NCBI GenBank assembly: GCA_034439755.1
Contig: JAWXAZ010000036.1
Coordinates: forward strand, 312 to 64,311
Reading direction: 5' to 3'
DNA from: a bacterium
GTDB lineage: Bacteria > Bacteroidota > Bacteroidia > UKL13-3
Length of the DNA: 64,000 nt
Part shown: positions 1 to 19,969 of the stretch, piece by piece
How the letters are laid out: every line of letters begins with the position of its first letter
How positions within the stretch are numbered: position 1 is the stretch's first letter
Made by a program: the position numbers and the translations under genes
Notes under the pieces: model-generated
What the model was told of the DNA's origin: nothing
The model's database searches: none
Seen by the model: the letters and a program-made list of their open reading frames with translations, nothing else

Positions 1-3000
1 ATCTTTATATCCAAATTGAAGCGAAATTTCATTCGGTTCAGAGTAAGAATTTGAATCAACAAAATAATTTACTCCTTCCATAATTTCATCAGAAAATTGA
101 GACTGATTTTGATAAAATGCAAGGTGTGTTTTTGCACGCGTTATACCCACATAAAGTAAGCGCTTATCTTTATCTTCCATAGCCTTTTCGCCATCAAACA
201 AAATAAAAACATTATCAAATTCCTTTCCTTTGGCTTTATGAATGGTTGAGATGATTGTTGTTTCCTGTTCCAATTGATAAAAATCCTCCAATCTAGATTC
301 TTGTAAAAACATATCAAAATCACTTTTGTATTTCACCTTAGAATTCACCTGGTCAAATTGCCTTAATAACTCAAGACAGATTGGCAATAATGAGCTACGT
401 TTAAACTCCATTACGAATGCTCTATACCCTTCATTCCATGCATCATTACTAATAATTGAAGTACTCTCATTATTATTTACCTTTTCAAAGAACCACTTAA
501 TTTCTTTAAGCGCTGATAAATTAAACTTCTCATTTGTTTGAATCAATTGACTTTTTCTTCCAGCCTTGTTCAACATTGTATTTATTTGAAGGGCTTGTAA
601 ATTAGTACGCGTTAATATTGCTGTAGTTCCACCAAACTCAGATTTTAAAAAATCTATCACTAACGGAACAATAATTCTCTCGCTACTATATTGTTTAATT
701 TTAACCGTGCCATTATCATCGTTATTGCCGAACAAGCTTTCTGTCTTTATCCTATTACTAATTGATTTAACATACTTATCTGTAAATCCAACCAAATCAT
801 TCTTGCTTCGGTAATTTACATTGAGTTCATACTTTGTTGCTAATTCATCTTTCAAAAACTGCTTCATGTATAAAGAACTAGCACCCCTGAATTCAAAAAT
901 ATTCTGATCATCATCACCGACCATCAACACCCTTAAATCTTCATTTTCTGTTATCAAAAGTGAGATCAACCTATATTCATCTTCATTGATATCTTGGGAT
1001 TCATCAATTACCAAAACTGTTTTGGTAATTTTATTTAATTCAATATCCTTAGATTGAATTTTTTCTATGGTTGAATGAATAATTGAACCCGATTTTTCGA
1101 GGTTCCCTACCCTTCCTAACAAATCAAAACAATAAGAATGAAACGTTTTAATTTCTACAAAATATGCTGGAGTACCAATAAGTTTTATAAGTCGTTGTTT
1201 AAACTCGGAGGCGGCAGCACGCGAGAAAGTAATCATCAATAATTGTTCTGTTTTAATATCTTCCATTAGAATTAATGAGGCAAGCTTATGAACAAGAACC
1301 TTTGTTTTGCCGCTGCCTGGGCCAGCAGCAACTAATATATTCTTATTTGTTTGATCTTTGATTATATTTAATTGCGTTGTAGATAAATCTCCAAATAATT
1401 GCTTAAATTTAGCAATGGTTATATTTCTTTTGATCTCGCTTTGTCTCGCACCTTTAAAGTACTTATTAAGAAAACTTGAATAATTGAGTTGAAAATAGTC
1501 GTCCACAAATTGTAAAGCATCACTGTAATCAGCGGTCATCTTTTTTGCATATTCGCCAACAATATGGATTTGCTGAATTTTATTTTCATAAAATTGATTT
1601 AAAGCCTGATAATCTTCCACCCTGTATTGCTTCTTATTATCCACTTCAAGTCTTTCAATATTTAAACGATTATATAAAACCATAAAACCACCTTCAATTT
1701 TTATGGCATCAATGCGCGACAAGAAAAATAAAGCTTCTTCCACTTCTTCACTGCTAGATTGCCTATTAAAAATTTGAATTTGTTTTTCGAATTCTTCCTT
1801 AAGCTCAAACACTGAAAATGAAACCAAATTATCATCCCTGTTTTCATTGTTGAGGGTTACAATTGCAAGTGACCTGTTATATAAAAAACTGATAATAAAT
1901 ACTGAAAGTTCCTTTCTGAAAGAAATTTTATGAATGAATTGTTCTTTAGGAATAATTAGATGAATATAAGAATGGTTCACATGATGCTCTAGGTTAGTTT
2001 TTTTGATCCATCCTTTTATGCTCCAAAAATTGAGTATAATTTTAAGTTGGTTAGGACTACAATTTGTGCAACCTGCGGCCTCTGCTTGTTCATTGAGTTC
2101 CTTAATATTAAAATCATTTGAATTTTCTTCCAATTTACTTGAAAGAAACTTCTCTAATTTATTAAACGATTGAAGTATTTGGTTCGATTTGTTTTGCTGC
2201 TCTCCCTTTTTTATAAAGGCATTGAGATCTTTGGTATCTCCTAAAATCTTTTCTTCTCTTAAAAGGTTAACGATATGAATTACTTCCCTATTAGACATTT
2301 CAAGAGTTTCGGCAATATAATCAACCCTAGATTCAGCAACTTCACTGCTACCAGCTTGTTTTGTTTTAGTAGAGAAGAGTTTTTTAATAATACGTGTGGC
2401 TTTTTCTTTTTCCTTAATCTCAAATCTCTTAGACCTTTCTATGGTTTCTATTGCTTCCTGTGCATTTTTGGTTAAAATACTACTAGCATAAACCGTTGGC
2501 GAATTTTGGCCACGCTTTAAATATCCTGAGTTTTCCAGAGCAGAAATGGCTGTAGTAACTCTTGTTTCAATTTCTCTGATGTTTTCGTCCCATCCTGCAC
2601 TTCTTGCAATATCCAAGGCCGATTTAGAAAATTTCAATCTTGTTTTGCTTAAATTTTTTACCGCTTTCCAAACTTGTTTAATTTCCTTTAAGCTTAATTT
2701 AGTTTGATTGAGCAAAACAAAATGTTTGCTTAAATCATCCTCATTAAAAAGCACATAACAATCTGCTTCAAGATTTTCGTCTCTTCCAGCTCTTCCTGCC
2801 TCTTGCACATAATTCTCCAAAGAGTCGGAAATTTCAAAATGCACCACCATAGCAATGTCTTTCTTATCAACACCCATGCCAAAAGCCGAGGTGGCTACCA
2901 TTATTCTAACCTCCCCATTAATAAAAGCGTTTTGGTTTGCTGTTTTATCTTTGGGATCCATTTTACCATAATAAGGCAATGCCATAAACCCGTCTTTGGT

Positions 3001-4524
3001 GAGCCTTTCGGCGATATCGTGTGCCTTTTTGGTTCTTGATACATATACAATACAAGGCTTTCCATTATGAAATAAAAGTTCTCTCAACTCGTTGTATTTT
3101 CCTTCTTCATTATCCTTTTCATAAACCTTATAATGTAAGTTTTTCCTTCCTGCACTCGAATTGTAAATTTCCAAATCAAGGTTTAGGTTTGATTTAAAAT
3201 AATAACAAATATCTTCAACCACCTTTTTCTTAGCTGTGGCTGTAAAACAAGAAATCTGGATAGGCTCCACTAGGTTTTTAGTTATTTGCAACTGTTTAAT
3301 AAAATCGGCTATATACAAATAATCAACCCTAAAATCCTGGCCCCATGAAGAGAAACAATGTGCTTCATCAATCACAAATCGGGCAATATTCCTTCCTAAC
3401 AATAATCGTTCAATTGATTTTGACCGTAAAGATTCGGGAGAGATATAAAGCATACAGGCTTGACCATTTTCCACACGTTCCATAGATTTACTTCTTTCAA
3501 TAGGATCGAGCAAACCATTAATAGTTACAGCGCTGGTAATACCCATTTTTTCAAGATTATCCACTTGATCTTTCATCAATGATTGTAGTGGAGAAATAAT
3601 TACCGTAAGTGCCTTACTATTCTCTCCACTCATTAATGCCGGAACCTGAAAAGTAATAGACTTACCTCCTCCAGTAGGAAAAACCGCAATAAGTGATTTG
3701 TTTTGAATTGCAGCATTTACTGCATGCTCCTGCAAAGGCTCTTCGCCATAAGTTCTAAAACTGTGGTGGTTAAAGAATTTTTTTAGCCCAAGTAAACCAT
3801 CCAAAGACTGGTTGCAATACAAACAACCCTGAACACATGGTCTATTTCTTAATTGATTAATAATGCGTTCTACTTTTGGATAACTTTTAAGCACCCAACG
3901 AGGAGTAATTGAATCTGTTTGCTTGCATTGAATAATAGACAAAGCATAAGCCAATTCTATAGCTGAATTCTTAATAAGTGGCGCTAAATCAAGTGAATCA
4001 CAAATAGCTCCCTTAAACTTAATTTTAACAAGCTCAATAAGATTTGCATCGGATGTGTGGTAATCTATGTACCTGAAAAAGCCCGCATAACCGAGCTTTT
4101 TTCGCAATAAAAAGTAGAATATCTCCTTAATTGGTGATTGATAAAAGGCTTCAATTTCATCTTGAAACAACTCCTTTGCTTTAATAGCATCGTTGAGTGG
4201 ATTATTTAATTCGTCTGTTTGGAGTTTATCATCTTTGAGCAAGGCATGATAGGGCCTTTCAGGGAAAAGCAGTGGAGATAAATATAAGGTATCAATTAAA
4301 TTCTCAGGCAACACATTACATTTATCCAATGTAGGTTTAAGGTAAGAATAATCGTGAAGCACAAAATTATGGCCCACGATATATTGCATCTCTGTTAAAA
4401 ATTGAATTAAATCTTTGGAAGAATTTGAATGGAATTTGGCACCATTCGAATTGATTCCACCCATATCCAAAACCTTACCGTTGCTGGGATCAATCTCTGT
4501 ATCAATAAAAGCAATTGGCTTCAT
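1..4524 (-). CDS. Large multidomain helicase whose 3' end lies beyond the window: N-terminal DnaQ/DEDDh-like exonuclease, RecQ-family SF2 helicase core, and C-terminal UvrD/PcrA-type SF1 helicase
   Basis: Absent from the supplied ORF track because there is no stop codon inside the window. My own translation starts at the ATG at 4524-4522 and reads MKPIAFIDTEID..IVGHNFVLHDYSYL..YHALLKDD, which is exonuclease-like. RecQ motifs follow: FPTGGGKS (the Lys codon is 3663-3661), IISPLQSLMKDQV, FVIDEAHCFSSWGQDFR, CFTATA, VATSAFGMGVDKKDI and YVQEAGRAGRD. UvrD motifs follow those: VAAGPGSGKT (about 1330-1303), VLVIDESQD, VGDDDQNIFEFRGA, NYRS, TIHKAKGKEFD and LLYVGITRAK. All motifs are in one frame, which stays open to position 1 (..LQFGYKD). 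Confidence 0.85.
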   Translation of the reverse strand, partial: MKPIAFIDTEIDPSNGKVLDMGGINSNGAKFHSNSSKDLIQFLTEMQYIVGHNFVLHDYSYLKPTLDKCNVLPENLIDTLYLSPLLFPERPYHALLKDDKLQTDELNNPLNDAIKAKELFQDEIEAFYQSPIKEIFYFLLRKKLGYAGFFRYIDYHTSDANLIELVKIKFKGAICDSLDLAPLIKNSAIELAYALSIIQCKQTDSITPRWVLKSYPKVERIINQLRNRPCVQGCLYCNQSLDGLLGLKKFFNHHSFRTYGEEPLQEHAVNAAIQNKSLIAVFPTGGGKSITFQVPALMSGENSKALTVIISPLQSLMKDQVDNLEKMGITSAVTINGLLDPIERSKSMERVENGQACMLYISPESLRSKSIERLLLGRNIARFVIDEAHCFSSWGQDFRVDYLYIADFIKQLQITKNLVEPIQISCFTATAKKKVVEDICYYFKSNLNLDLEIYNSSAGRKNLHYKVYEKDNEEGKYNELRELLFHNGKPCIVYVSRTKKAHDIAERLTKDGFMALPYYGKMDPKDKTANQNAFINGEVRIMVATSAFGMGVDKKDIAMVVHFEISDSLENYVQEAGRAGRDENLEADCYVLFNEDDLSKHFVLLNQTKLSLKEIKQVWKAVKNLSKTRLKFSKSALDIARSAGWDENIREIETRVTTAISALENSGYLKRGQNSPTVYASSILTKNAQEAIETIERSKRFEIKEKEKATRIIKKLFSTKTKQAGSSEVAESRVDYIAETLEMSNREVIHIVNLLREEKILGDTKDLNAFIKKGEQQNKSNQILQSFNKLEKFLSSKLEENSNDFNIKELNEQAEAAGCTNCSPNQLKIILNFWSIKGWIKKTNLEHHVNHSYIHLIIPKEQFIHKISFRKELSVFIISFLYNRSLAIVTLNNENRDDNLVSFSVFELKEEFEKQIQIFNRQSSSEEVEEALFFLSRIDAIKIEGGFMVLYNRLNIERLEVDNKKQYRVEDYQALNQFYENKIQQIHIVGEYAKKMTADYSDALQFVDDYFQLNYSSFLNKYFKGARQSEIKRNITIAKFKQLFGDLSTTQLNIIKDQTNKNILVAAGPGSGKTKVLVHKLASLILMEDIKTEQLLMITFSRAAASEFKQRLIKLIGTPAYFVEIKTFHSYCFDLLGRVGNLEKSGSIIHSTIEKIQSKDIELNKITKTVLVIDESQDINEDEYRLISLLITENEDLRVLMVGDDDQNIFEFRGASSLYMKQFLKDELATKYELNVNYRSKNDLVGFTDKYVKSISNRIKTESLFGNNDDNGTVKIKQYSSERIIVPLVIDFLKSEFGGTTAILTRTNLQALQINTMLNKAGRKSQLIQTNEKFNLSALKEIKWFFEKVNNNESTSIISNDAWNEGYRAFVMEFKRSSLLPICLELLRQFDQVNSKVKYKSDFDMFLQESRLEDFYQLEQETTIISTIHKAKGKEFDNVFILFDGEKAMEDKDKRLLYVGITRAKTHLAFYQNQSQFSDEIMEGVNYFVDSNSYSEPNEISLQFGYKD

Positions 4525-4807
4525 AACTGCGAAAAGTAGTCGTTTGAGAGGAGAAATCCAAGCCTATTTGAGCATAAAGGATTGGAAATCAAAATATCTT
4601 TTAAATCACCTTATGCACTAACAATAAGTTTCGCAATTCTTAATTCTGAAAATGAGAGTGTGCTTTATCAATAAGTTCAATCATTTGATTTAGAAATTGT
4701 TTTGGCAGCTATTTTTAAAAATTTAATATGAAATTTGTCAAAAGTAATCAGATTATGCTTAAGAAATAGACGTCGATTTAACTAGTAAGAACTATTTGGG
4801 TCTTAGC

Positions 4808-5407
4808 TCATTGATTCAGCAATTCAACCAACTCATTGATGATGTAGGCTCCTTTGTCTCTTGCGTACCATAAGTGCAAACTTTTTTCAAAATCTTCCCA
4901 CGTTATGGTGTCCATATTTTCTTTCCAATGTAGCATAATGTCTTGGGCAGGTTTTGGTCTTGGTCCCCAAGTAAGCAACACTTCATTGGTATCTTTATGC
5001 ATCATCAATAATTTGGGAATGGCCTTGGCTCCATTACTAAGGTGTTTTTCTATCAATTGGGGGTAGCTATCTCTTGAAATAAGTTTAAAATCAACAGCAC
5101 CTTCCATGCATTCTGCAACTTTGTTAACTATAGGCACAATCTGAGCACAATCGCCACACCAAGCATCGCCAATAAGCAACCAATTATACGTTTTCTTATG
5201 TTGATTAAGTTTGGCAATTTGCTCAGGATTCAATTGAATAGTTTTATCCAATCTATTCATCCTTTGAATATTCAATTTGGTAAATTCAAGCAAGGCTTCG
5301 CTTTGGTTCAGCCCAGTGGTTTTACCTGCTGCCACTAATAAATCAACATGTGCTCTATACTCATTGTAAGTGAGGCTCTCTTCAAAAATTTTAATTAATT
5401 CTATCAT
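4808..5407 (-). CDS. Thioredoxin-fold family protein (Thioredoxin_9-like)
   Basis: 199 aa. WCGDC redox motif in LLIGDAWCGDCAQIVP. The overall layout is typical of Bacteroidota thioredoxin-family proteins. Confidence 0.7.
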   Translation of the reverse strand: MIELIKIFEESLTYNEYRAHVDLLVAAGKTTGLNQSEALLEFTKLNIQRMNRLDKTIQLNPEQIAKLNQHKKTYNWLLIGDAWCGDCAQIVPIVNKVAECMEGAVDFKLISRDSYPQLIEKHLSNGAKAIPKLLMMHKDTNEVLLTWGPRPKPAQDIMLHWKENMDTITWEDFEKSLHLWYARDKGAYIINELVELLNQ

Positions 5408-5502
5408 TTTTTTTACGCAATCATTATTAAATCTTCGGTCTAATACAAACCAAGTTTCTTGTTATGAAATTAAATAATAAAAAAGCAGTCAATAATAATC
5501 AA

Positions 5503-5979
5503 TTAATATTCAATCTTCATCGTTACATCAAATGCCTTGGCAATATTGGTTGATGGCTTCCCTTTTTCGAAGGCAATTTTATAGTCTGCCAACACAATTT
5601 TGAGTTTGGTTTCAATGATAATCTGTCCGTCTTTAACCGTAATAGTCCCCATTTCTGAAATGGCCTTGGTGGTTTCTTTAAGGGTCATCTCGCCATCTAT
5701 CATGGCATGATAAACACCCTCCTTTTGAAAATTGATGTCTTTTAAATTGCTAATTTTTCCTTTGAACTTTGCTTTGGGAAATGGCTTTGTGTTTAAAAAT
5801 TTATCGCTGTTGAAATACTTTTGCATTAAGGCCTTTTGGAACTCAAAACTTTGCATTGGTACAGAAACAACTACCTCGCCAGATTCTTTGTTTAATATGG
5901 CCGTAGCGGCATAATTAACTGCACTAATATCTTCGGCAGCGGTATGCGAAAAGATATCAATTCTACTTTTTCTACTCAC
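5503..5979 (-). CDS. YceI-like periplasmic protein; the true start is probably upstream of the listed GTG
   Basis: Sequence pattern ..FEFQKALMQKYFNSDKFLNTKPFPKAKFKGKI..GEMTLKETTKAI.. matches YceI-like proteins. An in-frame signal-peptide-like stretch (KKISLIFAIIIGILTLNSF) lies directly upstream of the listed start. Confidence 0.6.
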   Translation of the reverse strand: MSRKSRIDIFSHTAAEDISAVNYAATAILNKESGEVVVSVPMQSFEFQKALMQKYFNSDKFLNTKPFPKAKFKGKISNLKDINFQKEGVYHAMIDGEMTLKETTKAISEMGTITVKDGQIIIETKLKIVLADYKIAFEKGKPSTNIAKAFDVTMKIEY

Positions 5980-6064
5980 TAATTTGTCCTCAGCAATTTT
6001 GAAACTATTTAATGTAAGGATGCCAATTATAATGGCAAAAATTAAGCTTATTTTTTTTATATTT

Positions 6065-6547
6065 TTATTCTTTTACTAAATCACATTTTTCGAGCAATAC
6101 ATTTTCATATAGCTCTAAGTCTTCATCGTAATTGGCACCAGACCTAATTATGCCTTTTATAGAAACGTGTTCTCCTATCTTTATTTCTGCTGCATGGGCG
6201 TTGGTTTCAGCCATAAACACACACATTACCCCAGCCTTATCTGCATCTTCTTGTAACAAAACCGTTTTCTGATTATTTAGGTTTATATCCATAGATTTTA
6301 CAGTGCCGGTAACCACAAATATTTTTGAATCGCCCTCGTTGCCTAAATACTTTTCATTGGCCAATTTTTCATCTTGCAGATACTCGCTAACAAGTGCTGT
6401 TGTGCTTACTGTATAATCTGCCTTTTGAGCTTGCACATCAATATGTGGCATGTTAAAGATATAATAGGCTATGCCACCTCCCACAGTTATTCCCAATAAA
6501 AGAACAAGGAGTATTATTTTTTTGATGTTATATTTTCTATTTGCCAT
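6065..6547 (-). CDS. Membrane-anchored OB-fold (tRNA_anti-like family) protein
   Basis: 160 aa. N-terminal TM helix (IILLVLLLGITVGGGIAYYIF) followed by a pattern typical of Bacteroidota tRNA_anti-like OB-fold proteins (..ANEKYLG..VTGTV..V.L....GVMCVF..G..V.IKG). Confidence 0.5.
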   Translation of the reverse strand: MANRKYNIKKIILLVLLLGITVGGGIAYYIFNMPHIDVQAQKADYTVSTTALVSEYLQDEKLANEKYLGNEGDSKIFVVTGTVKSMDINLNNQKTVLLQEDADKAGVMCVFMAETNAHAAEIKIGEHVSIKGIIRSGANYDEDLELYENVLLEKCDLVKE

Positions 6548-6645
6548 AAGAGTAATATTTTATTGATAAACAATGTGTATTAGTTCAAAAGAAAATTGAA
6601 CTATTACACATTGCTCTTTATACTTAAACTGCCTTTTAATAGCGG

Positions 6646-7044
6646 CTATGATTTTTTCAATGTGGCATCAATGGCCAACTTAATTTCTTCGGTAGATTTG
6701 CCCACACTAATGGTGCTAATTACTTTTTTAGACTTTGCATCTATTAAGGTAATCATGCCTGTAACCTTAGAATTTGCAGCAATTTTGGCTACACCAGCCT
6801 CTTCTAAGGCTTTTTTGCATAATTTCTTTGAGGCGTCATCTGTTACATCGTTTGCAACTATTTTTAATTCGCCAGTTTTATAGGCAGAAAATACTTCTTT
6901 GCCCATTCTGGCGTCATTGGCCTTGCAAGTTGAACACCAACTGGCTTTGGTTACAAGTGCAATTACTTTGGCATGATCTTGAGCAAATGCTGTTATTCCA
7001 ATGAATAAAGCTACGATGGTTAGAATTGTTTTTACGTTTTTCAT
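6646..7044 (-). CDS. Secreted thioredoxin-like CxxC protein
   Basis: 132 aa. Signal peptide MKNVKTILTIVALFIGITAFAQ and a WCSTC motif. Confidence 0.45.
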   Translation of the reverse strand: MKNVKTILTIVALFIGITAFAQDHAKVIALVTKASWCSTCKANDARMGKEVFSAYKTGELKIVANDVTDDASKKLCKKALEEAGVAKIAANSKVTGMITLIDAKSKKVISTISVGKSTEEIKLAIDATLKKS

Positions 7045-7115
7045 GTTAATTTATTTTAAAGTATATACCCATTAGTAGGTCGCCACTTTAAAACCTTACA
7101 CAAAAAACCGAATTA

Positions 7116-7346
7116 TTATTTCAAATGCCCGTCAATTTCCTGCTGAATGCGTGCTTTAGTAGATTCAGGTAAATTTATTTTATTTGAAACATCAAATGCT
7201 TGTTGGCTATTTTTAAGAACATCATCTATAAAAGCACTTTGCTTTTCATAGCTGCCACATTTACCACAAATCTTTATGTGAAGTTTTAATTGCAACCTAC
7301 CTAACAACAGCATTGAATTAAGTGTTTCTGTTGATGTAATTGACAC
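7116..7346 (-). CDS. Small protein with an H-x3-C-x2-C (zf-HC2 / ZAS anti-sigma-like) motif
   Basis: 76 aa with a GTG start. Motif LHIKICGKC followed by ..PESTKARIQQEI. No sigma factor gene is adjacent. Confidence 0.3.
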   Translation of the reverse strand: MSITSTETLNSMLLLGRLQLKLHIKICGKCGSYEKQSAFIDDVLKNSQQAFDVSNKINLPESTKARIQQEIDGHLK

Positions 7347-7426
7347 CTATATTGATTGGATGACCAACACATTTCCATTGGCATTGCAAGGTGTTAAAGT
7401 GATTGCAGAACAAGCAATAAAAACCC

Positions 7427-7783
7427 ATGAATGAAATAAAAGCATACATAAATGGGTTTCCACTAGAGGTTCAAGAAATTTTATACAAAATACGGACCAT
7501 CATTTTAGATGCTGCGCCAAAAGCAGATGAGGCAATGGCTTATGGTATGCCTGGTTATAAAACAAATAAAAAGCCATTGGTGTATTTTGCAGCTTACGAC
7601 AAACATGTTGGTTTTTATGCCACGCCAAATGGCCACGAAAAATTCGAAAAAGAACTTTCTATTTATAAACAAGGCAAGGGCTCTGTTCAATTTCAATTAA
7701 ATGAGCAAATACCCTATACGCTAATTAAAAAAATAGTTGCCTTTCGTATTAAGAATAATGAGCTCAAATATGGCAAAAAATAA
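7427..7783 (+). CDS. DUF1801 (YdhG-like) domain protein
   Basis: 118 aa. ..YINGFPLEVQEILYKIRTIILDAAPKADEAMAYGMPGYK..KPLVYFAAYDKHVGFY.. is the classic DUF1801 pattern. Confidence 0.7.
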   Translation: MNEIKAYINGFPLEVQEILYKIRTIILDAAPKADEAMAYGMPGYKTNKKPLVYFAAYDKHVGFYATPNGHEKFEKELSIYKQGKGSVQFQLNEQIPYTLIKKIVAFRIKNNELKYGKK

Positions 7784-7812
7784 ACGGCAGATGGCAAACA
7801 AAAAACATACCC

Positions 7813-8251
7813 ATGAAAGAATTTAATTACCTAGTATTTGAGCACTTTCCTGTTATTGAAACAGCTCGTTTATTGCTTAAAAATATGGTGGCAGAGGATG
7901 CCCAAAAAATATTAGAATTTAGGAAGAACGATCGCATTAGGGAATTTATTCACCGCAAAAGAATGGATGACTTAGAAAATGTCAACGACCTCATTGAACG
8001 TATAACAAAAGGGTATGAAGACAAAGCAATGATGGCTTGGGAAGGCGTTATTAAAAGCACCAATACCTTTATTGGAAGCTGCGGCTTCAACAAAATAGAC
8101 ATCCCAAAATTTAAGGGCAGAAATAGGCGGCGAACATAGCCGTGCCGCTTGGGGAAAACGTATTGCGCCAGTAGCTGTAAAACAGATTATTCAATTGGGT
8201 TTTATAAAGGAGGCACATTTTAACGATTATTATCAATATAAAGACCAATAA
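7813..8251 (+). pseudogene. GNAT (RimJ/RimL-type) N-acetyltransferase, frameshifted and C-terminally shortened
   Basis: Frame 1 ends at the TAG at 8137-8139 (..GSCGFNKIDIPKFKGRNRRRT*). The +1 frame starting at 8111 continues the expected GNAT sequence (LRAEIGGEHSRAAWGKRIAPVAVKQIIQLGF..) to the TAA at 8249-8251. Confidence 0.65.
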
Positions 8252-8470
8252 AATTCTCTTGCCATATATACTGCCTTTAACAAATAGTTTGGTTGGAACC
8301 GAAAAAAAACAGAAATGAAATGTAAGAATTTGTAACTAAACTTTTAAATTATATGTTCCGTTCCTTTTGGACTATCACATACTGCGTATTTGTAAAAATT
8401 ATGCTATTCAAAAATAAAAAGGCGTTGAATATATAAAAGAAAGATTATTTTGTTCCACCAAATAATTACA

Positions 8471-8878
8471 ATGGCTAAAGATATCCATAATCCAGATAGT
8501 GTTAAAGCATACATTAACAAGCTTGAACCAAATTTTGGTCATTTAATACAGGCTATTGGGAACGTGGTTTTGGCTACAGATGATCGCATTGGCGAACAAA
8601 TAAAATGGAACTCTCCCAGCTTTTTTTATTTAGGTGATATGAAACCCTTTAACCCAAAAGAATACAAAAGAGATTTGCTGGCAATAAATGTACGCAAGGA
8701 GCAAGCCTTACTTGTATTCCCCACTGGCGCCAATATCCAAGACAATACGGGTGTTTTAGAAGGAAATTATACAGATGGCCGACGTAGGGTTACCATAAAA
8801 ACAATGGCCGAATTAAAAGAGAAAACTAACAATCTAATGGCTGTTATAAAACGCTGGCTGAACCAAATAAATAATTAA
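8471..8878 (+). CDS. DUF1801-like domain protein (second paralog)
   Basis: The ATG at 8471 (MAKDIHNPDSVKAYINKLEP..IKWNSPSFFY..) is preferred over the TTG at 8450. Confidence 0.55.
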   Translation: MAKDIHNPDSVKAYINKLEPNFGHLIQAIGNVVLATDDRIGEQIKWNSPSFFYLGDMKPFNPKEYKRDLLAINVRKEQALLVFPTGANIQDNTGVLEGNYTDGRRRVTIKTMAELKEKTNNLMAVIKRWLNQINN

Positions 8879-8904
8879 ACCAACTTATAAAAACAAAATA
8901 ACCT

Positions 8905-9351
8905 ATGGAATCAACAGAAACACTAAACATCGAAACAAGTTCATTTTTTAAAAATGAAGAACGCAATGCCTACTTAAGGGAAATGGCCAAATGGGGCAAA
9001 TTATTATCCATTGTGGGGTTTATTGGAATGGGCATTATATGCATCATAGCCGTTGCGATGATGGCGGGTATGAGCTTTTTTTCGAAAAATACCTCTTTAG
9101 GAGGTTTAAACACCTGGATTGGCCTTGTATATATAGCCATGGCGGCTCTTTACTATTTCCCTGTCAAGTATTTATTTACCTTTTCTAAGGAGATAAATCT
9201 TGCTTTGGATTTACAAGACGAGAACAATTTAACCGAGGGTTTAAAGAATCTAAAATCGGTATTTAAATTCATGGGAATTGCCACCATGATTATGCTTGTT
9301 GTGTACGGACTAGTTTTTGTTTTTGGGCTATTGGCCTATAGCATGAGGTAA
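8905..9351 (+). CDS. Integral membrane protein, function unknown
   Basis: 148 aa with several hydrophobic helices (LLSIVGFIGMGIICIIAVAMMAG, WIGLVYIAMAALYYF, GIATMIMLVVYGLVFVFGLLAY). Confidence 0.5.
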   Translation: MESTETLNIETSSFFKNEERNAYLREMAKWGKLLSIVGFIGMGIICIIAVAMMAGMSFFSKNTSLGGLNTWIGLVYIAMAALYYFPVKYLFTFSKEINLALDLQDENNLTEGLKNLKSVFKFMGIATMIMLVVYGLVFVFGLLAYSMR

Positions 9352-13125: not shown

Positions 13126-16100
13126 ATGAACAATTATACGGATATGGAATATCGAATTTTCAGACAAATTAAGCTTACAAAAATTGCAGGCCTTTTGTTG
13201 CTGCTACTGGCCTTCATTTGTCCTGCTTTGCAAACACAAGCCAAAAACTTGAGTGCACCGCCGCCAACTCCTTTAACGGTAAATCCCGATACAGGGTATG
13301 TGAACGGCTATAATGGCGCAGCATCCTTGCTAAACATCTATGCCAACGATTCTTTTAACAATGCAACACTTGTACCAGCAGATGTCATATTAAGTTATAC
13401 CTCGCCAAGTCCAAAAATTTCTATCAATGCAAGCACAGGCATTGTTACAGTGGCTACCTATTTGGCCGCTGGAACTTATACCATACCTTATACTTTAACG
13501 GATGCTTTGGATGCGCTTAATTTTGCAAGTGCCAATTTAATTGTAGTAGTTTCTGCACCTCCTATTTTTGCTAACCACGACCAAGTTTGGGTTAATGGTT
13601 ATAATGGAAATTTAAATGCCATTACCGTAAATACAAACGACAGCATAAACAATGGCTTAGCACCACGCTCTGCCATTGCGTTTACTTTGCTTAGTTCGCC
13701 AACAGAACCCAATGTAATTATGAATACATTAAATGGCAGGGTATCTATATTTCCTATGACTCCAGCGGGCGTATATTACTTTGTTTACCGCATTTGCGAC
13801 ACCCTCAATCCAGCTAATTGTGATACGGCATTGGTGACGGTGAATGTAATGGCTCCACCTATTTTTGCCAATTCAAATACCCTTAATGTAAACGGATTTA
13901 ATGGGGGAAACAACTTATTAAATGTTTGGAGCAATGATCAAATAAATGGTGCAGCAGTTAACAGTACCAATGTAATAACAAGCTTGGTTACTCCATCTGC
14001 TAATTCAGCTATTACTTTGAATACAAGCACGGGTATGATTAGTGTTGCACCCGCACAAGTAGCAGGGAATTATACCTTGGTTTATAGCATTTGCGATAGC
14101 ATGAACACCACAAGTTGCGATACCGCTATTGTTTATATTAACCTCACACCTCCGCCTATTGATGCCAAAAACGACACGGCTTATGTGGATGGATATGCAG
14201 CAACAGCCAATGTCATAAATGTACTAAGCAACGACTTGTTAAACAATGCCAGCATTGCCATAAATGCTGTTTCGGTTAAATGGCATGTAGCCTCTAATCA
14301 CCCCAATATTACCTTAGATACTTTAACAGGGAATATACAGGTTAGTCCCAGAATTGCGGTTGGAACCTATTCTTTACAATACAGAATTATAGATACTGCC
14401 AATATGGGCAGCTCAGATACAGCCACAGCATTTGTGGTGGTAAGGGCTCCAAATGTTTATGCCAATCCAGAATATGCCTACGTAAATGGATACGATGGCA
14501 ACCCTGCTTTGGTTCAGGTCTTGGCCAACGATAGCATCAATAATATTGCCTTATCCATTGGCGATGTAAAATTAAGCGTATTGGCTCAATCGACTCATCC
14601 TGGAGTTTGGCTCAACGATACCACTGGCTTTATTAAAGTAATGCCAATGGTGCCAGCAGGCAAGTATATAATTAGCTACAAAATATGCGATACGCTTAAT
14701 ATGAGCAATTGCGATTCGGCAAGCGATACCATTGAAGTAATGGCACCCATTATTGAGGCAGTGCAAGACACCTTTATTCACAATGGGTATGATGCCAGTC
14801 TTAACATTGGAAATGTATTAAGCAACGATAGCATAAACGGCATGGTGGTAATGGCAGGAGGCGTAAGGTTGCTTACCTTAATGCCAAGCAGCGCAACCGG
14901 AATTAGGCTAAATGATACCACAGGCATTATAAGCTTTGCACCACGCATTGCGGCAGGATATTATAGCATTAAATATCAAATAACCGACACTTTAAATGCG
15001 GGTAATATTGATTCTACATTCGCCATTATTAAAGTAATTGCGCCAACTATTTTTGCTGAAAACGATACGGCTTATGTAGTGGGCGAAACAGGTAGTAAGG
15101 GCGTATATCAAGTATTGCAAAACGACCGCATCAATGGCGATTCGGCCAAGACATCCAATACACATGTAAAATTGGTTATTGGTTCAGGCAATCCAAAAAT
15201 TAAACTGGATACCTTAACTGGATTTTTAAAAGTAGATTCATTAACACGTGCAGGTTTGTATCACATCACTTACCGCATTATTGACACCTTAAATGCAACC
15301 AATGCAGATACCGGAATCTTGGCAATTTATGTTTCTGCAACACCCGTAATTGCGAGCAACGATAGCCTAACTGTAAATGGGTATAATGGCAATTTAAATT
15401 TAGGCAATGTGCTTGCCAATGATAGTATAAATGGGCTTATTGTATCGCCCAGCAGGGTAGTTATTAGCTTGGTTCAAAACTTCCCGAATGGCGATTTGGT
15501 GCTCAATACTTTTAATGGAAGAATCTCTGTTTTCCCTGGCACACAAGCTGGATTATACAGCATGACATACCGCATTTGCGACACCTTAAATACAGGCGTT
15601 TGCGATACTGCCATGGTGCAAGTCTTGGTAACACCACCCCCTATTTTTGCGCATGTTGATCATGCTTTTGTTAATGGGTTTACCGGAAATAGCAATGCCA
15701 TAAATGTTTTTGGCAACGACAGTGTAAATGGATTACCAACAAATGCTTTGGGTGTTATAACTACCTTGGTAAGCGCGGCAAGTATTCCAGATATTAGTTT
15801 TGATACAGCCACTGGCATTATAAGTGTTGCGCCAAATTTAGCAGCAGCAGAATACTCCTTAGTTTACCGCATTTGTGATACCCTGAACCAAAGCAATTGC
15901 GATACGGCCATTGTGTTTATTCATATAATGGCACCACCCATTGTGGCCACCAATGATACAATTTATGCAGATGGCTATTCCTCTCTTGGAATCATAGGCA
16001 ATGTATTAAACAACGATAGTTTAAACAACGATACCATTGGGGTAAATGCAGTAATGGTTAAATTATATTCGGCTTCAAGCCATGCTGGAATTAGCCTCGA

Positions 16101-18990
16101 TACGTTAACGGGCGATATTCATTTTTTACCACGCATTGCGGCAGGTACCTATACCTTGCAATACAGCATTATTGATACAGTAAACTTGTTTAGCTTCGAT
16201 ACGGGTTATGTGGTGGTGGTGGTAGATTCGCCCAATGTATATGCCAACCCAGAATATGTTTATGTAAATGGATACAACGGCGATACTGCCTTGGTGCAAG
16301 TTCTGGCTAATGATAGCATCAACAACTTTTCATTGGCCATTGGCGATGTAAAGTTAACCGTATTATCTCAGTCTTCTCACCCGGGAGTTTGGTTAAATGA
16401 TACCACAGGTTACATTGTGGTTGCCCCATTGGTGCCGGTAGGATTATATGTAATAAACTACAAAATATGCGATACCCTCAATGTGTATAATTGCGATACC
16501 ACAAGTGATACCATTGAAGTTAGAGCTCCCTTTATTTTAGCAGTTGCCGATACCTTTATGCAAAATGGTTACGATACCAATTTTGCGATAGGCAATGTAT
16601 TGAGCAACGATAGCTTAAACTATAAGCCGCTTTCTATGGGCAGTGTAAGCATTACCCTGATTACGCCTGCTTCAAATGCCGCTATTCGTTTAGATACCGC
16701 TACCGGATTAATATCATTGATTCCGCGTGTTTCGGCGGGGTATTATAGCATTCAATATCAAATTTCTGATACCCTGAACCCAACAAATGTGGATACCAAT
16801 TTTGCGGTTATTCAGGTAATGCCGCCATCCATAATTGCTATAAATGATACCGCAGATGTGATTGGAGAAGTTGGCTCAATGGGCGTATACAATGTATTGC
16901 CAAACGACCTTATCAATGGCGATTCGGTAACGAGTAGCAATATTTTGTTGAAATTGGTGATTGGTTCAGGCCAAAATAAAATTAGACTTGATACCCTAAC
17001 AGGATTGTTGCAAGTAGACTCGTTAACTCCTGCAGGTATCTACCATATTTGGTATAGAATTATTGATACCCTAAACGCAGGTAATGCAGATACTGCTATC
17101 TTAACAATTTTTGTTTCTCCAACGCCACTTTTTGCGAACGGCGACAGTGCTAAGGTGAATGGATATATTGGAAACTTAAATTTATTAAATGTTTTGGCGA
17201 ATGATAGCATTTTAGGAGATGTTGTAAAGCCGGGCAGGGTTAATATTAGCATTGTTCAGAACTCGGGAACAAGCGGCGTGGTATTGAATACCTTTAACGG
17301 ACAAATCTCTGTATTTCCAAATACGCCATTAGGTATTTACAAAATGATATATCGCATCTGCGACACATTAAATCCGAGTAGTTGCGATACGGCCTACGCC
17401 ACCATTTATGTGCATGGATATCCATTAGTTGCTAAGAACGACAGCGTAATGGTAAATGGATATGGCGGTTTAATCAATGCCCTCAATGTAATTGATAACG
17501 ATAGTTTAAATGGAGCACCTTTGCTAAACACCCAAGTAAGGTATAAGGAATTGGTGAGTGCAGGCAGTGGCATTAGCTTAGATACCCTAACCGGATTTGT
17601 AAGTGTGGCAGCAAAAACCAATGCCGGTATGTATACTTTGTTCTATCAAGTAACTGATACGCTAGACATGAACAATACCGACAGTGCTTATGTGGTGATA
17701 GCTGTTTTTGCTGTTGGTCCCATTGCAATAAATGATGAGGTTGCAACGCCATTTGGATTGCCAATTGTGGTAACACCATTATCTAACGATTTGGATGTTG
17801 ACAACAACATAAATATAGCAACCATGAAGATTATTAGCATGCCAATAAATGGAACAGCGGTGGCAGATACCATTTTGAGCACCATCACTTATACGCCTAA
17901 TGCCAATTGGGTTGGATATGATACCTTATATTATTCAATTTGCGACTCGGGCATGGTGCCAGTTTTATGCGATACGGCTTATATTGTTGTTAGCACACAA
18001 GACTCCTTAAACTTAGTCTTTAAAATGACCACTGACGTAAGATGTTTTGGAGACAGCGATGGTATGGCAAACATCATTTTGGCAGGCGGATTAGAGCCTT
18101 ATAACATTACCTGGAATACAACGCCGGTTCAGACCGGACAATCAGCTTCAAATTTAAAAGCAGGAAATTATGTGGCCATGGTAATAGACTTTTTAAATGA
18201 CACCCTATTGGTTGATGTTACAATTAACAGTCCCACTTTAATAAGTGCAACAGCTAAACTTACCAATCCTACTTGCAATGGCAAATCGAATGGCAGCATA
18301 GAATTATTTGTGAGTGGTGGAACGGCGCCTTACTATTATTTCTGGAACAATGGTTCTGTATTTAACCCAGTAAACAATGTTCAGGCAGGCAATTACAGCG
18401 TGGTTGTTACAGACACCAATGGATGTAAAATAAACAGAAATTACATTTTAACAGAGTCTGATCCAATGCAACTATCGGTGGTAAAAATTGTGGATGCAGT
18501 TTGTAAAACAACATTCGATGGCAGCATTACTTTAAATTTAACGGGGGGCACAGCACCTTATAAATACCTGTGGAGCAATGGCGCAAGCACCCTAAATTTG
18601 GCAAACAGATTGCATGGCGAATATACCTTAGTAGTTACCGATACTTTTAATTGCAGCACAAGTGGTAAATACACCATTTATTATCAGAAAGAAAACTGCG
18701 AACAAGATGTGTTTGTACCGCAAGGCTTTTCACCAGATGGCGATGGCATAAATGATGCCTATACCATTGATGGCATTGAGAAGTTTCCGAATAACCATTT
18801 GCGCATTTATAACCGTTGGGGCGCAATGGTGTTTGAGGAAGTGGGTTATAAGAATACTTGGAAAGGAACCGCAGAAACGGGCATTGGCAGTGGTACTGGA
18901 GAAACATTGCCTACAGGAACCTATTTCTATGTATTGGAATTAGAACCTGGAAAACCTGTAATTTCTGGCTATTTATACATTAGTAAATAA
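13126..18990 (+). CDS. Giant modular cell-surface protein with a T9SS type B (gliding-motility-associated) C-terminal domain
   Basis: 1954 aa with a signal peptide. About 15 tandem modules of about 99 aa (consensus ..PPIFAN.D...VNGYNGN.N..NVL.NDSING......V...L........LNT.TG.ISV.P...AG.Y...YRICDTLN...CDTA.V.V.V). One cadherin-like unit (..VVTPLSNDLDVDNN..). Three SprB-type repeats (GGLEPYNITWN, GGTAPYYYFWNNG, GGTAPYKYLWSNG). The C-terminus VFVPQGFSPDGDGINDAYTI..LRIYNRWGAMVFE..LPTGTYFYVLEL is the type B CTD pattern. Confidence 0.85.
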   Translation: MNNYTDMEYRIFRQIKLTKIAGLLLLLLAFICPALQTQAKNLSAPPPTPLTVNPDTGYVNGYNGAASLLNIYANDSFNNATLVPADVILSYTSPSPKISINASTGIVTVATYLAAGTYTIPYTLTDALDALNFASANLIVVVSAPPIFANHDQVWVNGYNGNLNAITVNTNDSINNGLAPRSAIAFTLLSSPTEPNVIMNTLNGRVSIFPMTPAGVYYFVYRICDTLNPANCDTALVTVNVMAPPIFANSNTLNVNGFNGGNNLLNVWSNDQINGAAVNSTNVITSLVTPSANSAITLNTSTGMISVAPAQVAGNYTLVYSICDSMNTTSCDTAIVYINLTPPPIDAKNDTAYVDGYAATANVINVLSNDLLNNASIAINAVSVKWHVASNHPNITLDTLTGNIQVSPRIAVGTYSLQYRIIDTANMGSSDTATAFVVVRAPNVYANPEYAYVNGYDGNPALVQVLANDSINNIALSIGDVKLSVLAQSTHPGVWLNDTTGFIKVMPMVPAGKYIISYKICDTLNMSNCDSASDTIEVMAPIIEAVQDTFIHNGYDASLNIGNVLSNDSINGMVVMAGGVRLLTLMPSSATGIRLNDTTGIISFAPRIAAGYYSIKYQITDTLNAGNIDSTFAIIKVIAPTIFAENDTAYVVGETGSKGVYQVLQNDRINGDSAKTSNTHVKLVIGSGNPKIKLDTLTGFLKVDSLTRAGLYHITYRIIDTLNATNADTGILAIYVSATPVIASNDSLTVNGYNGNLNLGNVLANDSINGLIVSPSRVVISLVQNFPNGDLVLNTFNGRISVFPGTQAGLYSMTYRICDTLNTGVCDTAMVQVLVTPPPIFAHVDHAFVNGFTGNSNAINVFGNDSVNGLPTNALGVITTLVSAASIPDISFDTATGIISVAPNLAAAEYSLVYRICDTLNQSNCDTAIVFIHIMAPPIVATNDTIYADGYSSLGIIGNVLNNDSLNNDTIGVNAVMVKLYSASSHAGISLDTLTGDIHFLPRIAAGTYTLQYSIIDTVNLFSFDTGYVVVVVDSPNVYANPEYVYVNGYNGDTALVQVLANDSINNFSLAIGDVKLTVLSQSSHPGVWLNDTTGYIVVAPLVPVGLYVINYKICDTLNVYNCDTTSDTIEVRAPFILAVADTFMQNGYDTNFAIGNVLSNDSLNYKPLSMGSVSITLITPASNAAIRLDTATGLISLIPRVSAGYYSIQYQISDTLNPTNVDTNFAVIQVMPPSIIAINDTADVIGEVGSMGVYNVLPNDLINGDSVTSSNILLKLVIGSGQNKIRLDTLTGLLQVDSLTPAGIYHIWYRIIDTLNAGNADTAILTIFVSPTPLFANGDSAKVNGYIGNLNLLNVLANDSILGDVVKPGRVNISIVQNSGTSGVVLNTFNGQISVFPNTPLGIYKMIYRICDTLNPSSCDTAYATIYVHGYPLVAKNDSVMVNGYGGLINALNVIDNDSLNGAPLLNTQVRYKELVSAGSGISLDTLTGFVSVAAKTNAGMYTLFYQVTDTLDMNNTDSAYVVIAVFAVGPIAINDEVATPFGLPIVVTPLSNDLDVDNNINIATMKIISMPINGTAVADTILSTITYTPNANWVGYDTLYYSICDSGMVPVLCDTAYIVVSTQDSLNLVFKMTTDVRCFGDSDGMANIILAGGLEPYNITWNTTPVQTGQSASNLKAGNYVAMVIDFLNDTLLVDVTINSPTLISATAKLTNPTCNGKSNGSIELFVSGGTAPYYYFWNNGSVFNPVNNVQAGNYSVVVTDTNGCKINRNYILTESDPMQLSVVKIVDAVCKTTFDGSITLNLTGGTAPYKYLWSNGASTLNLANRLHGEYTLVVTDTFNCSTSGKYTIYYQKENCEQDVFVPQGFSPDGDGINDAYTIDGIEKFPNNHLRIYNRWGAMVFEEVGYKNTWKGTAETGIGSGTGETLPTGTYFYVLELEPGKPVISGYLYISK

Positions 18991-19007
18991 AATTGGAGAC
19001 CAAAAAA

Positions 19008-19922
19008 ATGAAACGAATAATTATCTGTTTTAGTTTTATGTTGGGGGCCTTCCAACTATTTGCGCAACAAGATCCAATGTTTGGGCAGTACATCTTTAAC
19101 AATGCCATTATTAATCCGGCGCAAGCTGGGGTTAACAAAGAAAATCAAGTTGGCATATTAACAAGGCACCAATGGTTGGGAATGGATGGCGCTCCTACCA
19201 CCAACTCAATTTTTATCAATACCAATTTACCAAAGAACCTCGGTTTTGCAGGTGGTATCTATTCAGATAAAATTGGGCCTGTTAAAGACCTCACCTTCCA
19301 GGCAGATTTGGCCACGCATGTGCAGCTAAACAACGATTGGAACTTATCGGGTGGTGTGCGTGCAATGGCGTCTAATTTGAGCATCGATTTAAGTACTTTG
19401 CAAACGAGTCAAATTAACGATCCAAATTTCAATACCAATTACCGCTCGGGCATGTACATGAATTTAGGTGCAGGTATATTGGCATATTCAGACAAGGTAT
19501 TTATTGGGGCTTCCTTACCTAGGTTATTTGGCAGGGATGTGAAAGCCAACAACACCGTTATTACAAGATACCAAGACCATTTTTACTTATATGGTGGGGC
19601 TAACTTAAAGGTAAATGAAGACTTCACTTTTACACCCAGTTTATTGTTTAAGAAAGTAACCAATGCACCCTTGCAATACGATGTTAATTTGGTTTTTGAT
19701 TATAAAGACATCCTTGATGTGGGACCCATGTTTAGGGCAAACGACGCCATTGGCTTCTTAGCGGGATACAAGGTTACCTCACAAATTTATGTAGGTTATA
19801 TGTATGAATATCCATTGAATGATTTGCATTTGGCCTCTATGCAAACCCATGAATTAAGCATACGCATGCTATGGGAAAGCAAACAGAAAAGTCGTGTTAA
19901 ATCACCTAGATATTTCTTATAA
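19008..19922 (+). CDS. PorP/SprF-family type IX secretion system membrane protein
   Basis: ..FAQQDPMFGQYIFNNAIINPAQAGV.. is the family signature. It lies immediately downstream of the type-B-CTD gene. The ATG at 19008 is preferred over the TTG at 18993. Confidence 0.85.
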   Translation: MKRIIICFSFMLGAFQLFAQQDPMFGQYIFNNAIINPAQAGVNKENQVGILTRHQWLGMDGAPTTNSIFINTNLPKNLGFAGGIYSDKIGPVKDLTFQADLATHVQLNNDWNLSGGVRAMASNLSIDLSTLQTSQINDPNFNTNYRSGMYMNLGAGILAYSDKVFIGASLPRLFGRDVKANNTVITRYQDHFYLYGGANLKVNEDFTFTPSLLFKKVTNAPLQYDVNLVFDYKDILDVGPMFRANDAIGFLAGYKVTSQIYVGYMYEYPLNDLHLASMQTHELSIRMLWESKQKSRVKSPRYFL

Positions 19923-19969
19923 AATGAACTTTTATCTATCAATGTCAACCGATATAAAAGAATAGTGGA

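Follow-up and report, generated by a model that had tools for sequence, protein, structure and literature searches.

Genome maintenance and immunity depend centrally on machines that couple helicases to nucleases, for example RecBCD, AddAB, AdnAB and WRN, and on defence systems that include Gabija, Hachiman and Nhi. Here, a single gene is described whose product joins a DEDD-fold exonuclease-like domain, a RecQ-family motor of helicase superfamily 2 (SF2) and a UvrD-type motor of superfamily 1 (SF1) in one chain. The gene lies at the edge of a 64,000-nucleotide stretch of DNA from a bacterium of the Bacteroidota (UKL13-3; assembly GCA_034439755.1, contig JAWXAZ010000036.1, positions 312 to 64,311), and this whole stretch is referred to as the window. 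In the literature searched, no characterised enzyme is described that pairs a RecQ motor of SF2 with a UvrD motor of SF1; the individual parts all come from known superfamilies, and helicase-nuclease machines are familiar as a principle.

Comparison with described systems

WRN shares with the window protein an N-terminal DEDD-fold 3'-5' exonuclease-type domain followed by a RecQ-family core in the same chain; its helicase core matches at about 1e-37, and in both proteins a 3'-5' motor would be expected to cooperate with a 3'-5' exonuclease. However, the WRN exonuclease is a canonical DEDDy enzyme, whereas the window protein has an Asn at the Tyr/His position, and WRN has Zn-binding, RQC winged-helix and HRDC modules, none of which was detected in the window protein. 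Conversely, WRN, which is eukaryotic, has neither a second SF1 motor nor a four-cysteine domain before motif 0, and the window protein has both. RecBCD, AddAB and AdnAB provide a second likeness, as they unite two ATPase motors and nuclease activity in one DNA-end-processing machine; AdnAB and RecB use UvrD-like SF1A motors, and the UvrD module of the window protein gives domain-level matches to RecB and AddA models. These machines are multi-subunit, pair SF1 with SF1 motors and use PD-(D/E)xK nucleases of the RecB family, whereas the window protein is one chain with an SF2 RecQ and an SF1A UvrD motor of the same expected polarity and a DEDD-fold nuclease; a Pfam scan detected no PD-(D/E)xK domain in it.

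Among defence proteins, the best PADLOC matches to residues ~247-748 are DpdF (2.5e-92), from the dpd 7-deazaguanine DNA-modification cluster, and PsyrT (1.5e-77). DpdF and PsyrT/RqlH have RecQ-type cores without the classical RecQ C-terminal modules, as does the window protein, but neither carries a fused exonuclease or UvrD motor. The window protein scores 214.7 bits against the DpdF equivalog NF041063 (cut-off 550) and no dpd cluster is conserved around its homologues, so it is not assigned to Dpd; nor is it assigned to PsyrTA/RqlHI, as the match is at domain level only and no antitoxin-like or other conserved adjacent gene is found in 79 homologous loci. Models of GajB, the Gabija helicase, match the UvrD module at about 1e-38 over residues ~1047-1485 only, and both have compact accessory domains. 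GajB works with an adjacent GajA OLD/TOPRIM nuclease, whereas the window protein has no conserved partner in the 79 loci and none of the 25 PADLOC families listed for the adjoining genes is a GajA model, which places it outside Gabija.

Coupling of a DEDD or YprB-type exonuclease to an SF2 helicase is also seen in exonuclease-bearing DinG (e.g. of S. aureus) and in MrfA/MrfB (YprA/YprB of B. subtilis), and YprB-like domains are among the fold matches of the N-terminal domain described below. DinG (XPD-like) and MrfA (DExH) nevertheless belong to SF2 families other than RecQ and have no second motor, and MrfAB consists of two proteins. MrfAB, DinG and WRN all have roles in DNA repair. The initial annotation, made from the window alone, had called the layout non-standard, and it indeed matches no characterised housekeeping repair protein.

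An intact gene for a 1602-residue protein

The gene and its parts, with residues numbered from the start codon, are as follows.

1..4524, running off the window edge, minus strand: exonuclease-RecQ-UvrD gene, an open frame
4135..4524, minus strand: DEDD-type (DnaQ-like, RNase H fold) 3'-5' exonuclease-like domain, residues 1-130, from the predicted fold, Foldseek and invariant residues
3775..4134, minus strand: helical domain with four invariant cysteines, residues 131-250, from the predicted structure and conservation
2635..3774, minus strand: RecQ-family SF2 helicase core, residues 251-630, from Pfam, NCBIfam, PDB and invariant motifs
1390..2634, minus strand: family-specific linker of ~415 residues, residues 631-1045, from profile search, structure prediction and Foldseek
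85..1389, minus strand: compact UvrD/PcrA/Rep-type SF1A helicase motor, residues 1046-1480, from Pfam, PDB and invariant motifs
1..84, minus strand: start of the C-terminal domain, residues 1481-1508 of a ~120-residue domain (1481-1602) whose fold was not recognised
4525..4807, minus strand: upstream intergenic region of 283 bp, between a Thioredoxin_9-like gene (4808-5407) and the start codon

Minus-strand translation of positions 1-4524 gives 1508 codons and zero stops, which bears out the original claim of a frame open from the ATG at 4524 to base 1. An in-frame TAG at 4566-4564 lies 14 codons upstream of this ATG, no ATG, GTG or TTG start is present between the two, and the N-terminus M-x-x-I-A-F-I-D-T-E lines up with the N-termini of all homologues. 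The gene is missing from the mechanical list of open reading frames over this region because frames that cross the edge go unlisted. A database protein (P0001) is 100% identical to the window product and has a total length of 1602 residues, so that the part outside the window comes to only 94 residues (282 nt and the stop codon). Furthermore, an independent Logan contig of 8274 bp carries the whole identical gene and ends 4 bp past the stop; an exact 37-mer scan of metagenome contigs for the left flank gave 0 matches. The 283-bp intergenic region presumably holds the gene's own promoter; a scan of it for sigma-70-type promoters gave scores no better than those of shuffles.

The protein is ordered as DEDD-fold exonuclease, four-cysteine helical domain, RecQ core, ~415-residue linker, UvrD motor and small C-terminal domain. 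Each motif string quoted in the initial annotation was found in the protein where it had been placed, and three catalytic-type modules do stand in one polypeptide in the order proposed. The catalytic-type residues of all three modules are invariant across phyla in 72 full-length homologues, the set to which all counts of invariance below refer. The exonuclease-RecQ-UvrD gene is therefore real, intact and strongly constrained.

Two motors of different superfamilies

The RecQ core has motifs 0, I, Ia, II (DEAH), III, V and VI intact and is matched by the Pfam models DEAD at residues 263-438 (1.3e-32) and Helicase_C at residues 476-581 (8.7e-22). Over residues 247-611 the NCBIfam model recQ_fam (TIGR00614) gives 275.3 bits against a cut-off of 219.8, which places the core in the RecQ family, and its relatives among PDB sequences are RECQ1, E. 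coli RecQ, BLM, RECQ5 and WRN (1e-52 to 1e-37). Q265, K288, D386, E387, H389, R578 and R581 are invariant in 72/72 homologues. The initial description of a complete RecQ motor holds for the ATPase core, but not for the protein as a RecQ: the equivalog TIGR01389 gives 303 bits against a cut-off of 640.2, the RecQ_Zn_bind and RQC Pfam models find no match at E<=0.1, and HRDC finds none either. The recQ_fam and PDB alignments end at about residues 611-630, those to the PDB relatives near residue 630, and after motif VI there is only one conserved cysteine (C589), compared with the four expected of a Zn-binding subdomain.

The second motor is as originally described, of UvrD/PcrA type, and carries motifs I, Ia, II (DESQD), III, IV, V and VI. 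Pfam places UvrD-helicase from residue 1048 (3.8e-33; 115.8 bits, cut-off 23), AAA_19, and UvrD_C (60.4 bits, cut-off 25.6) and UvrD_C_2 (46.7 bits, cut-off 27.4) at residues 1385-1470, scores that assign the module to SF1A. E. coli UvrD, PcrA, UvrD1 and Rep are its relatives among PDB sequences (1e-24 to 1e-17), and K1073, D1174, E1175, Q1207, R1213, R1239 and R1463 are invariant in 72/72 homologues. The scores stay far below those of the equivalog models for PcrA (131 against 911 bits), UvrD (116 against 1144) and Rep (93 against 951). Motif spacing indicates that the 1B and 2B inserts are shortened.

A DEDD-fold exonuclease-like domain without the canonical general base

The assignment of an exonuclease to the N-terminus rests on structure prediction and fold searches, because sequence searches failed. 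A single-sequence search with residues 1-259 found nothing among PDB sequences and no Pfam match at E<=10, a family profile of the N-terminus found nothing among PDB sequences, and HHalign of that profile with E. coli DnaQ gave a non-significant probability of 2%. Among 48 diverse N-terminal fragments, sub-threshold Pfam matches cluster in the DEDD clan: 8 fragments match DNA_pol_B_exo1, 4 match RNase_T, and DNA_pol_A_exo1, DNApol_Exo and RNase_H_2 have a single match apiece; the best sub-threshold matches among relatives are to RNase_T (2.3e-4) and DNA_pol_B_exo1 (1e-3).

An AlphaFold2 (AF2) model of the domain, for which the input was a 19-sequence family alignment, has a predicted local distance difference test score (pLDDT) of 80.3 and a predicted template modelling score of 0.79. 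Its elements run b1(4-11)-b2(18-25)-b3(30-33)-aA-b4(48-51)-aB(54-68)-b5(76-78)-a...-a(109-129), where b is a strand and a is a helix, and this order is that of the RNase H-like/DnaQ-like topology. Foldseek searches of the PDB with this model return the exonuclease domains of family-B and T7 DNA polymerases, REXO2 (probability 1.0, template modelling score 0.55 on the target), EXD2, Egalitarian and E. coli Pol II, together with related integrase cores, at E-values from 7e-4 to 7e-2. Against BFVD, a library of viral predicted structures, all six matches at E<=1e-3 are PolA/PolB exonuclease, DnaQ-like or YprB-type RNase H-like domains. The matches from both libraries are thus dominated by DEDD exonuclease domains, at modest E-values (1.6e-4 to 1e-2) and with probabilities up to 1.0.

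When the Exo motifs are assigned by position in the predicted secondary structure rather than by superposition of coordinates, Exo I corresponds to D8/E10 of strand 1, Exo II to H52-N53...H57-D58, with D58 at the start of helix B, and Exo III to D112, at the start of helix 109-129. D8, E10, D58 and D112 are invariant in 72/72 full-length homologues from several phyla, as are H52, N53, H57, H93 and K97. At the positions of the His/Tyr general base (-5/-4 from D112) the family has N107 (Asn in 68/72) and N108 (Asn in 72/72), and the patterns H-x4-D or Y-x3-D of DEDDh and DEDDy enzymes are absent from the canonical position before the last Asp. An invariant Y92-H93...D98-D99 loop (H93-x4-D98), modelled at pLDDT below 50, may substitute for the canonical general base through Y92-H93. 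The domain therefore has the RNase H-like fold and four acidic residues of the DEDD superfamily, but none of the curated exonuclease profiles (RNase_T, DNA_pol_A_exo1 or DNA_pol_B_exo1) matches it significantly. Of the initial label of a DnaQ/DEDDh-like exonuclease, the fold and the acidic residues stand, whereas membership of DEDDh is not established because of the Asn at the His/Tyr position and the lack of any Pfam model at threshold; residues 1-130 are filed as a DEDD-fold exonuclease-like domain that is not canonical DEDDh.

The four-cysteine domain, the linker and the C-terminus

Residues 131-250, which lead into RecQ motif 0, are helical in the AF2 model and match nothing in Pfam or the PDB. 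They contain C175 and C230-x3-C234-x2-C237, all invariant in 72/72 homologues, and these four cysteines are presumed to form a metal site, either Zn or Fe-S. The linker between the motors is the sequence signature of the exonuclease-RecQ-UvrD architecture: a profile search with it returned 621 proteins, and in every one of them it stands between Helicase_C and UvrD domains. Its profile matches no PDB sequence, its AF2 model reaches a pLDDT of only 62, and Foldseek gives weak winged-helix matches only (PadR, MarR, the Cdt1 C-terminal domain and ORC; E>=0.24); it probably consists of several winged-helix-like modules and a long helix. The match to the PADLOC DpdF model PDLC02864 extends into the linker, as far as residue 748. 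The C-terminal domain (residues 1481-1602) is the least conserved region, although W1577 is invariant, and its profile gives no real match in the PDB, only chance-level matches to encapsulin.

A widespread, patchily distributed family

In a species survey, for which one genome per species was scanned and the 80 best loci were examined further, relatives of the giant helicase were found in at least 596 species. The 80 best loci are mostly from Bacteroidota, and the remainder are from Lachnospiraceae, Oscillospiraceae, other Clostridia, Lentisphaerae, Deltaproteobacteria, Balneolales and Haloplasmataceae; their homologues are full length at 48-59% identity. Human-gut carriers include Bacteroides, Phocaeicola, Alistipes and Lachnospiraceae. 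A profile of the N-terminus retrieved 1415 representative clusters, and those listed have the same ~1600-residue layout or are fragments of it. In the databases the family bears only the label 'RecQ family ATP-dependent DNA helicase', no description of the exonuclease-RecQ-UvrD architecture or family was found in the literature searched, and PADLOC has no model that covers the protein over its full length.

The distribution is patchy and accessory. Identity of 48-60% among Bacteroidota, Clostridia, Lentisphaerae, Deltaproteobacteria, Balneolales and other groups, together with a gene G+C (GC) content that is often below that of the flanks, indicates that the family is horizontally spread. A family member is carried by 4 of 72,556 plasmid records and by no phage record. 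In an Aliarcobacter cibarius megaplasmid the gene stands directly beside parA/parB and a replication initiator and near a type IV secretion system (T4SS) coupling protein, and in a B. finegoldii record it is near ssb and parA/parG genes.

A distant, longer relative of 1756 residues, with 22% identity in the linker region, is found on the Allochromatium vinosum plasmid pALVIN01 (locus L086, 6997-19305), which extends the architecture to Gammaproteobacteria; it adjoins a complete type I restriction-modification system (hsdR, hsdM and hsdS). Among database proteins P0121-P0240 there are many family fragments of 400-800 residues on long contigs, such as P0171 (515 residues), whose 15 member sequences are spread over 10 contigs that reach 257 kb, and P0129 (414 residues, on a 392-kb contig), and they suggest recurrent frameshifting, pseudogenisation or splitting of the large gene in some lineages.

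A single-gene unit among varied neighbours

The initial annotation had warned that partner genes might lie beyond the window and that the full system could not be judged. Besides the 94 residues, nothing constant appears to be missing: when open reading frames were called and clustered in the 79 homologous loci, no neighbour was conserved, and the commonest non-focal cluster, an ABC transporter, was present in 11/79 at scattered positions. The downstream gene is on the same strand in 33/66 loci, which is the chance level, and median gaps exceed 100 bp. These three results settle the concern over an off-window partner; the gene is a single-gene unit, mostly monocistronic, and a conserved partner gene was rejected on the clustering of neighbours.

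Defence genes are common within 10 kb of the homologues. Most of the neighbour families that recur are associated with defence (PDC-S41/DUF2075 helicase, SoFic, PDC-S04, mad3, type II restriction endonucleases, HNH, RmrA and AbiEii), each accounting for at most 4/148 neighbours, and McrBC-like genes, type IV restriction endonucleases and a type I restriction-modification system are also found. A distal control of genes at least six positions away also contains Wadjet, type IV restriction endonucleases, methyltransferases and AriA; enrichment of defence genes is not claimed, because this control did not separate from the adjacent genes.

Two of these loci are notable for their immediate neighbours. 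In Ferruginibacter paludis (locus L002, 7312-9605) a 69-residue Vsr fragment and a 657-residue DUF2075/SLFN-group-3 helicase lie immediately upstream of the homologue; this helicase matches the PADLOC candidate PDC-S41 end to end (2.7e-289), and members of its family directly adjoin the homologue in 4 loci. In Filimonas sp. (locus L007, 15201-18508), genes that by sequence reading encode a McrB-like AAA+ GTPase and a McrC-like protein lie directly downstream; the pair recurs in 3 loci, and a Pfam scan of neighbours found AAA_5 in 4 members.

The gene had also been described as richer in AT than its neighbours. Among 119 sliding 4.5-kb windows (mean 0.384, standard deviation 0.024), none indeed has a lower GC content than the 0.332 of the gene, but the gene is not GC-poorer than its immediate neighbours, as the content of the next 4.8 kb is only slightly higher (0.344). 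Across homologous loci, gene GC is below flank GC in 43/61 and on average 1.8% lower. No tRNA genes were found, and the window part of the locus holds neither a tRNA nor an integrase. No LexA-type box of the form CTAA-N5-TTAG is present upstream of the gene, the one site in the window, at 52.9 kb, being at chance level; SOS regulation is rejected for this single Bacteroidota motif, the only one scanned.

Proposed role and alternatives

The preferred reading, to which a probability of roughly 45% is assigned, is that the protein is a stand-alone dual-motor WRN-like helicase-exonuclease that acts against invading or aberrant DNA as a single-gene defence. RecQ and UvrD/PcrA/Rep translocate 3'->5'. 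We infer that both motors of the window protein move in this direction, and it would on that account load on DNA that is partly single-stranded or branched, for instance at ends, gaps, forks and D-loops. The two motors could then unwind or remodel the DNA, possibly with one on each strand, while the winged-helix modules hold the duplex and a released 3' end passes to the N-terminal exonuclease. The closest analogy would be WRN with a second motor added, as in RecBCD and AdnAB; this motor and the winged-helix modules may add processivity, strand switching or substrate selection, and the outcome would be the destruction or disabling of invading or abnormally replicating DNA, be it phage, plasmid or integrative and conjugative element (ICE). 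A stronger version is more doubtful: that the family forms a new class of immune effectors encoded by a single gene and widespread among Bacteroidota and Clostridia of the gut and the environment, whose RecQ and UvrD motors would recognise invading or replicating foreign DNA, unwind it and feed it to a non-canonical DEDD exonuclease, with the four-cysteine, possibly Fe-S, domain as a structural or regulatory element.

A defence role is favoured because the mobility of the gene, its stand-alone nature and the recurrent defence genes nearby fit it, and the domain-level PADLOC similarity to the defence helicases DpdF, PsyrT and GajB supports it. Selection appears to act on all three activities, since D8, E10, D58, D112, H93, the four cysteines and the key ATPase residues are kept in 72/72 homologues. 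The initial suggestion of an anti-phage or anti-plasmid system is thus plausible given the recurrence of defence genes within 10 kb, but enrichment over distal genes is not clear. Several observations weigh against defence: PADLOC families matched in similar numbers among adjacent (140) and distal (111) genes; no PADLOC match is full length; identity of 48-60% between phyla is more than a fast-evolving immune gene would usually show; and the neighbours visible in the window are ordinary small genes (Thioredoxin_9, YceI, DUF1801, Tex). In addition, the exonuclease-like domain has N107/N108 in place of the canonical His/Tyr general base, is below Pfam thresholds and might lack activity, both the polarity of the two motors and the way they cooperate are predictions, and the literature searched holds no paper on the family.

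The main rival, and a serious one, though somewhat unlikely, is an accessory enzyme of DNA repair, recombination or fork processing, either a bacterial WRN-like protein or a one-chain analogue of MrfA/MrfB or exonuclease-bearing DinG, which would help some lineages with cross-links, stalled forks or toxic recombination intermediates. For every module, the solved structures nearest to it belong to genome-maintenance enzymes (RECQ1, RecQ, BLM and WRN; UvrD, PcrA and Rep; proofreading, REXO2 and YprB-like exonucleases), the order of exonuclease and RecQ core mirrors WRN, and the very high conservation across phyla, with invariant catalytic residues, is typical of housekeeping-type enzymes; the window neighbours, moreover, are not defence genes. 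Such a role is harder to reconcile with a patchy accessory distribution that lacks conserved core-genome context, with the lack of any conserved repair-gene partner or, for the one Bacteroidota motif scanned, of an upstream LexA-type box, and with the recurrence nearby of restriction, abortive-infection and Wadjet genes and the plasmid location of some copies.

Unlikely, though compatible with any biological role, is that the N-terminal domain has no catalytic activity and instead acts as a sensor of 3' ends or nucleotides or as a module for protein interaction, which would make the protein a pure dual-motor translocase or remodeller. The Asn residues (N107/N108) at the general-base position, the low pLDDT of the Y92-H93 loop, the lack of a Pfam exonuclease model over threshold and the non-significant HHalign comparison with E. 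coli DnaQ would all be accommodated. However, pseudo-nucleases usually lose their acidic residues, and the strict retention of all four metal-ligand acidic residues together with H52, N53, H57, H93 and K97 is hard to explain without catalysis.

A factor for mobile-element maintenance or counter-defence, active in the replication, partition, recombination or protection of a plasmid, ICE or island rather than in host immunity, is improbable. The Aliarcobacter cibarius copy beside parA/parB and a replication initiator and near the T4SS coupling protein, the B. finegoldii copy near ssb and parA/parG, and a phylogenetic spread that indicates horizontal transfer are consistent with it, but copies are mostly chromosomal, the plasmid records that carry one number only 4/72,556 and the phage records none, and no integrase or transfer gene is conserved nearby, nor is a tRNA or integrase present in the window part of the locus. 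An artefactual origin, whether as a frame open by chance, as a chimera of separate recQ and uvrD genes made in assembly or as a pseudogene, is excluded for practical purposes, as its only support, absence from the mechanical list, is explained by the window edge, whereas the identical full-length gene is present on the independent Logan contig, more than 120 database proteins and 79 genome loci share the collinear ~1600-residue architecture, and the linker is conserved and family-specific.

A strictly conserved single chain of RecQ and UvrD motors with a DEDD-fold nuclease is new relative to the literature searched and worth experimental follow-up. It poses the mechanistic question of how two motors of different superfamilies, but of the same expected polarity, act jointly on one DNA. 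The family, at present hidden behind a generic RecQ-helicase label, is common enough (at least 596 species, including those of the human gut) to matter for phage and plasmid biology in the microbiome. If it is a defence protein, it would be a compact single-gene system; if a repair protein, a bacterial counterpart of WRN with an extra motor.

Other features of the window

Window positions 4808-9351 hold small genes (Thioredoxin_9, YceI, a tRNA_anti-like OB fold, DUF1801 and others) at a GC content of 0.344, against 0.390 in the rest of the window. Low GC thus extends over the ~9.3 kb next to the window edge, which may have been acquired as one segment. On the minus strand at 57917-61246, a gene encodes a 1109-residue protein that carries a membrane anchor at its N-terminus and a very long coiled coil rich in K, E and Q; this gene accounts for the extreme strand skew at 58-60 kb (AT skew -0.41, GC skew -0.27). 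At 13126-22660 on the plus strand, a highly repetitive adhesin-like protein of 1954 residues is followed by genes for 309 and 896 residues; in a reading by eye that would identify the host as one of the Bacteroidota, these genes look like type IX secretion or gliding cargo with PorP/SprF-like and OmpA-like partners.

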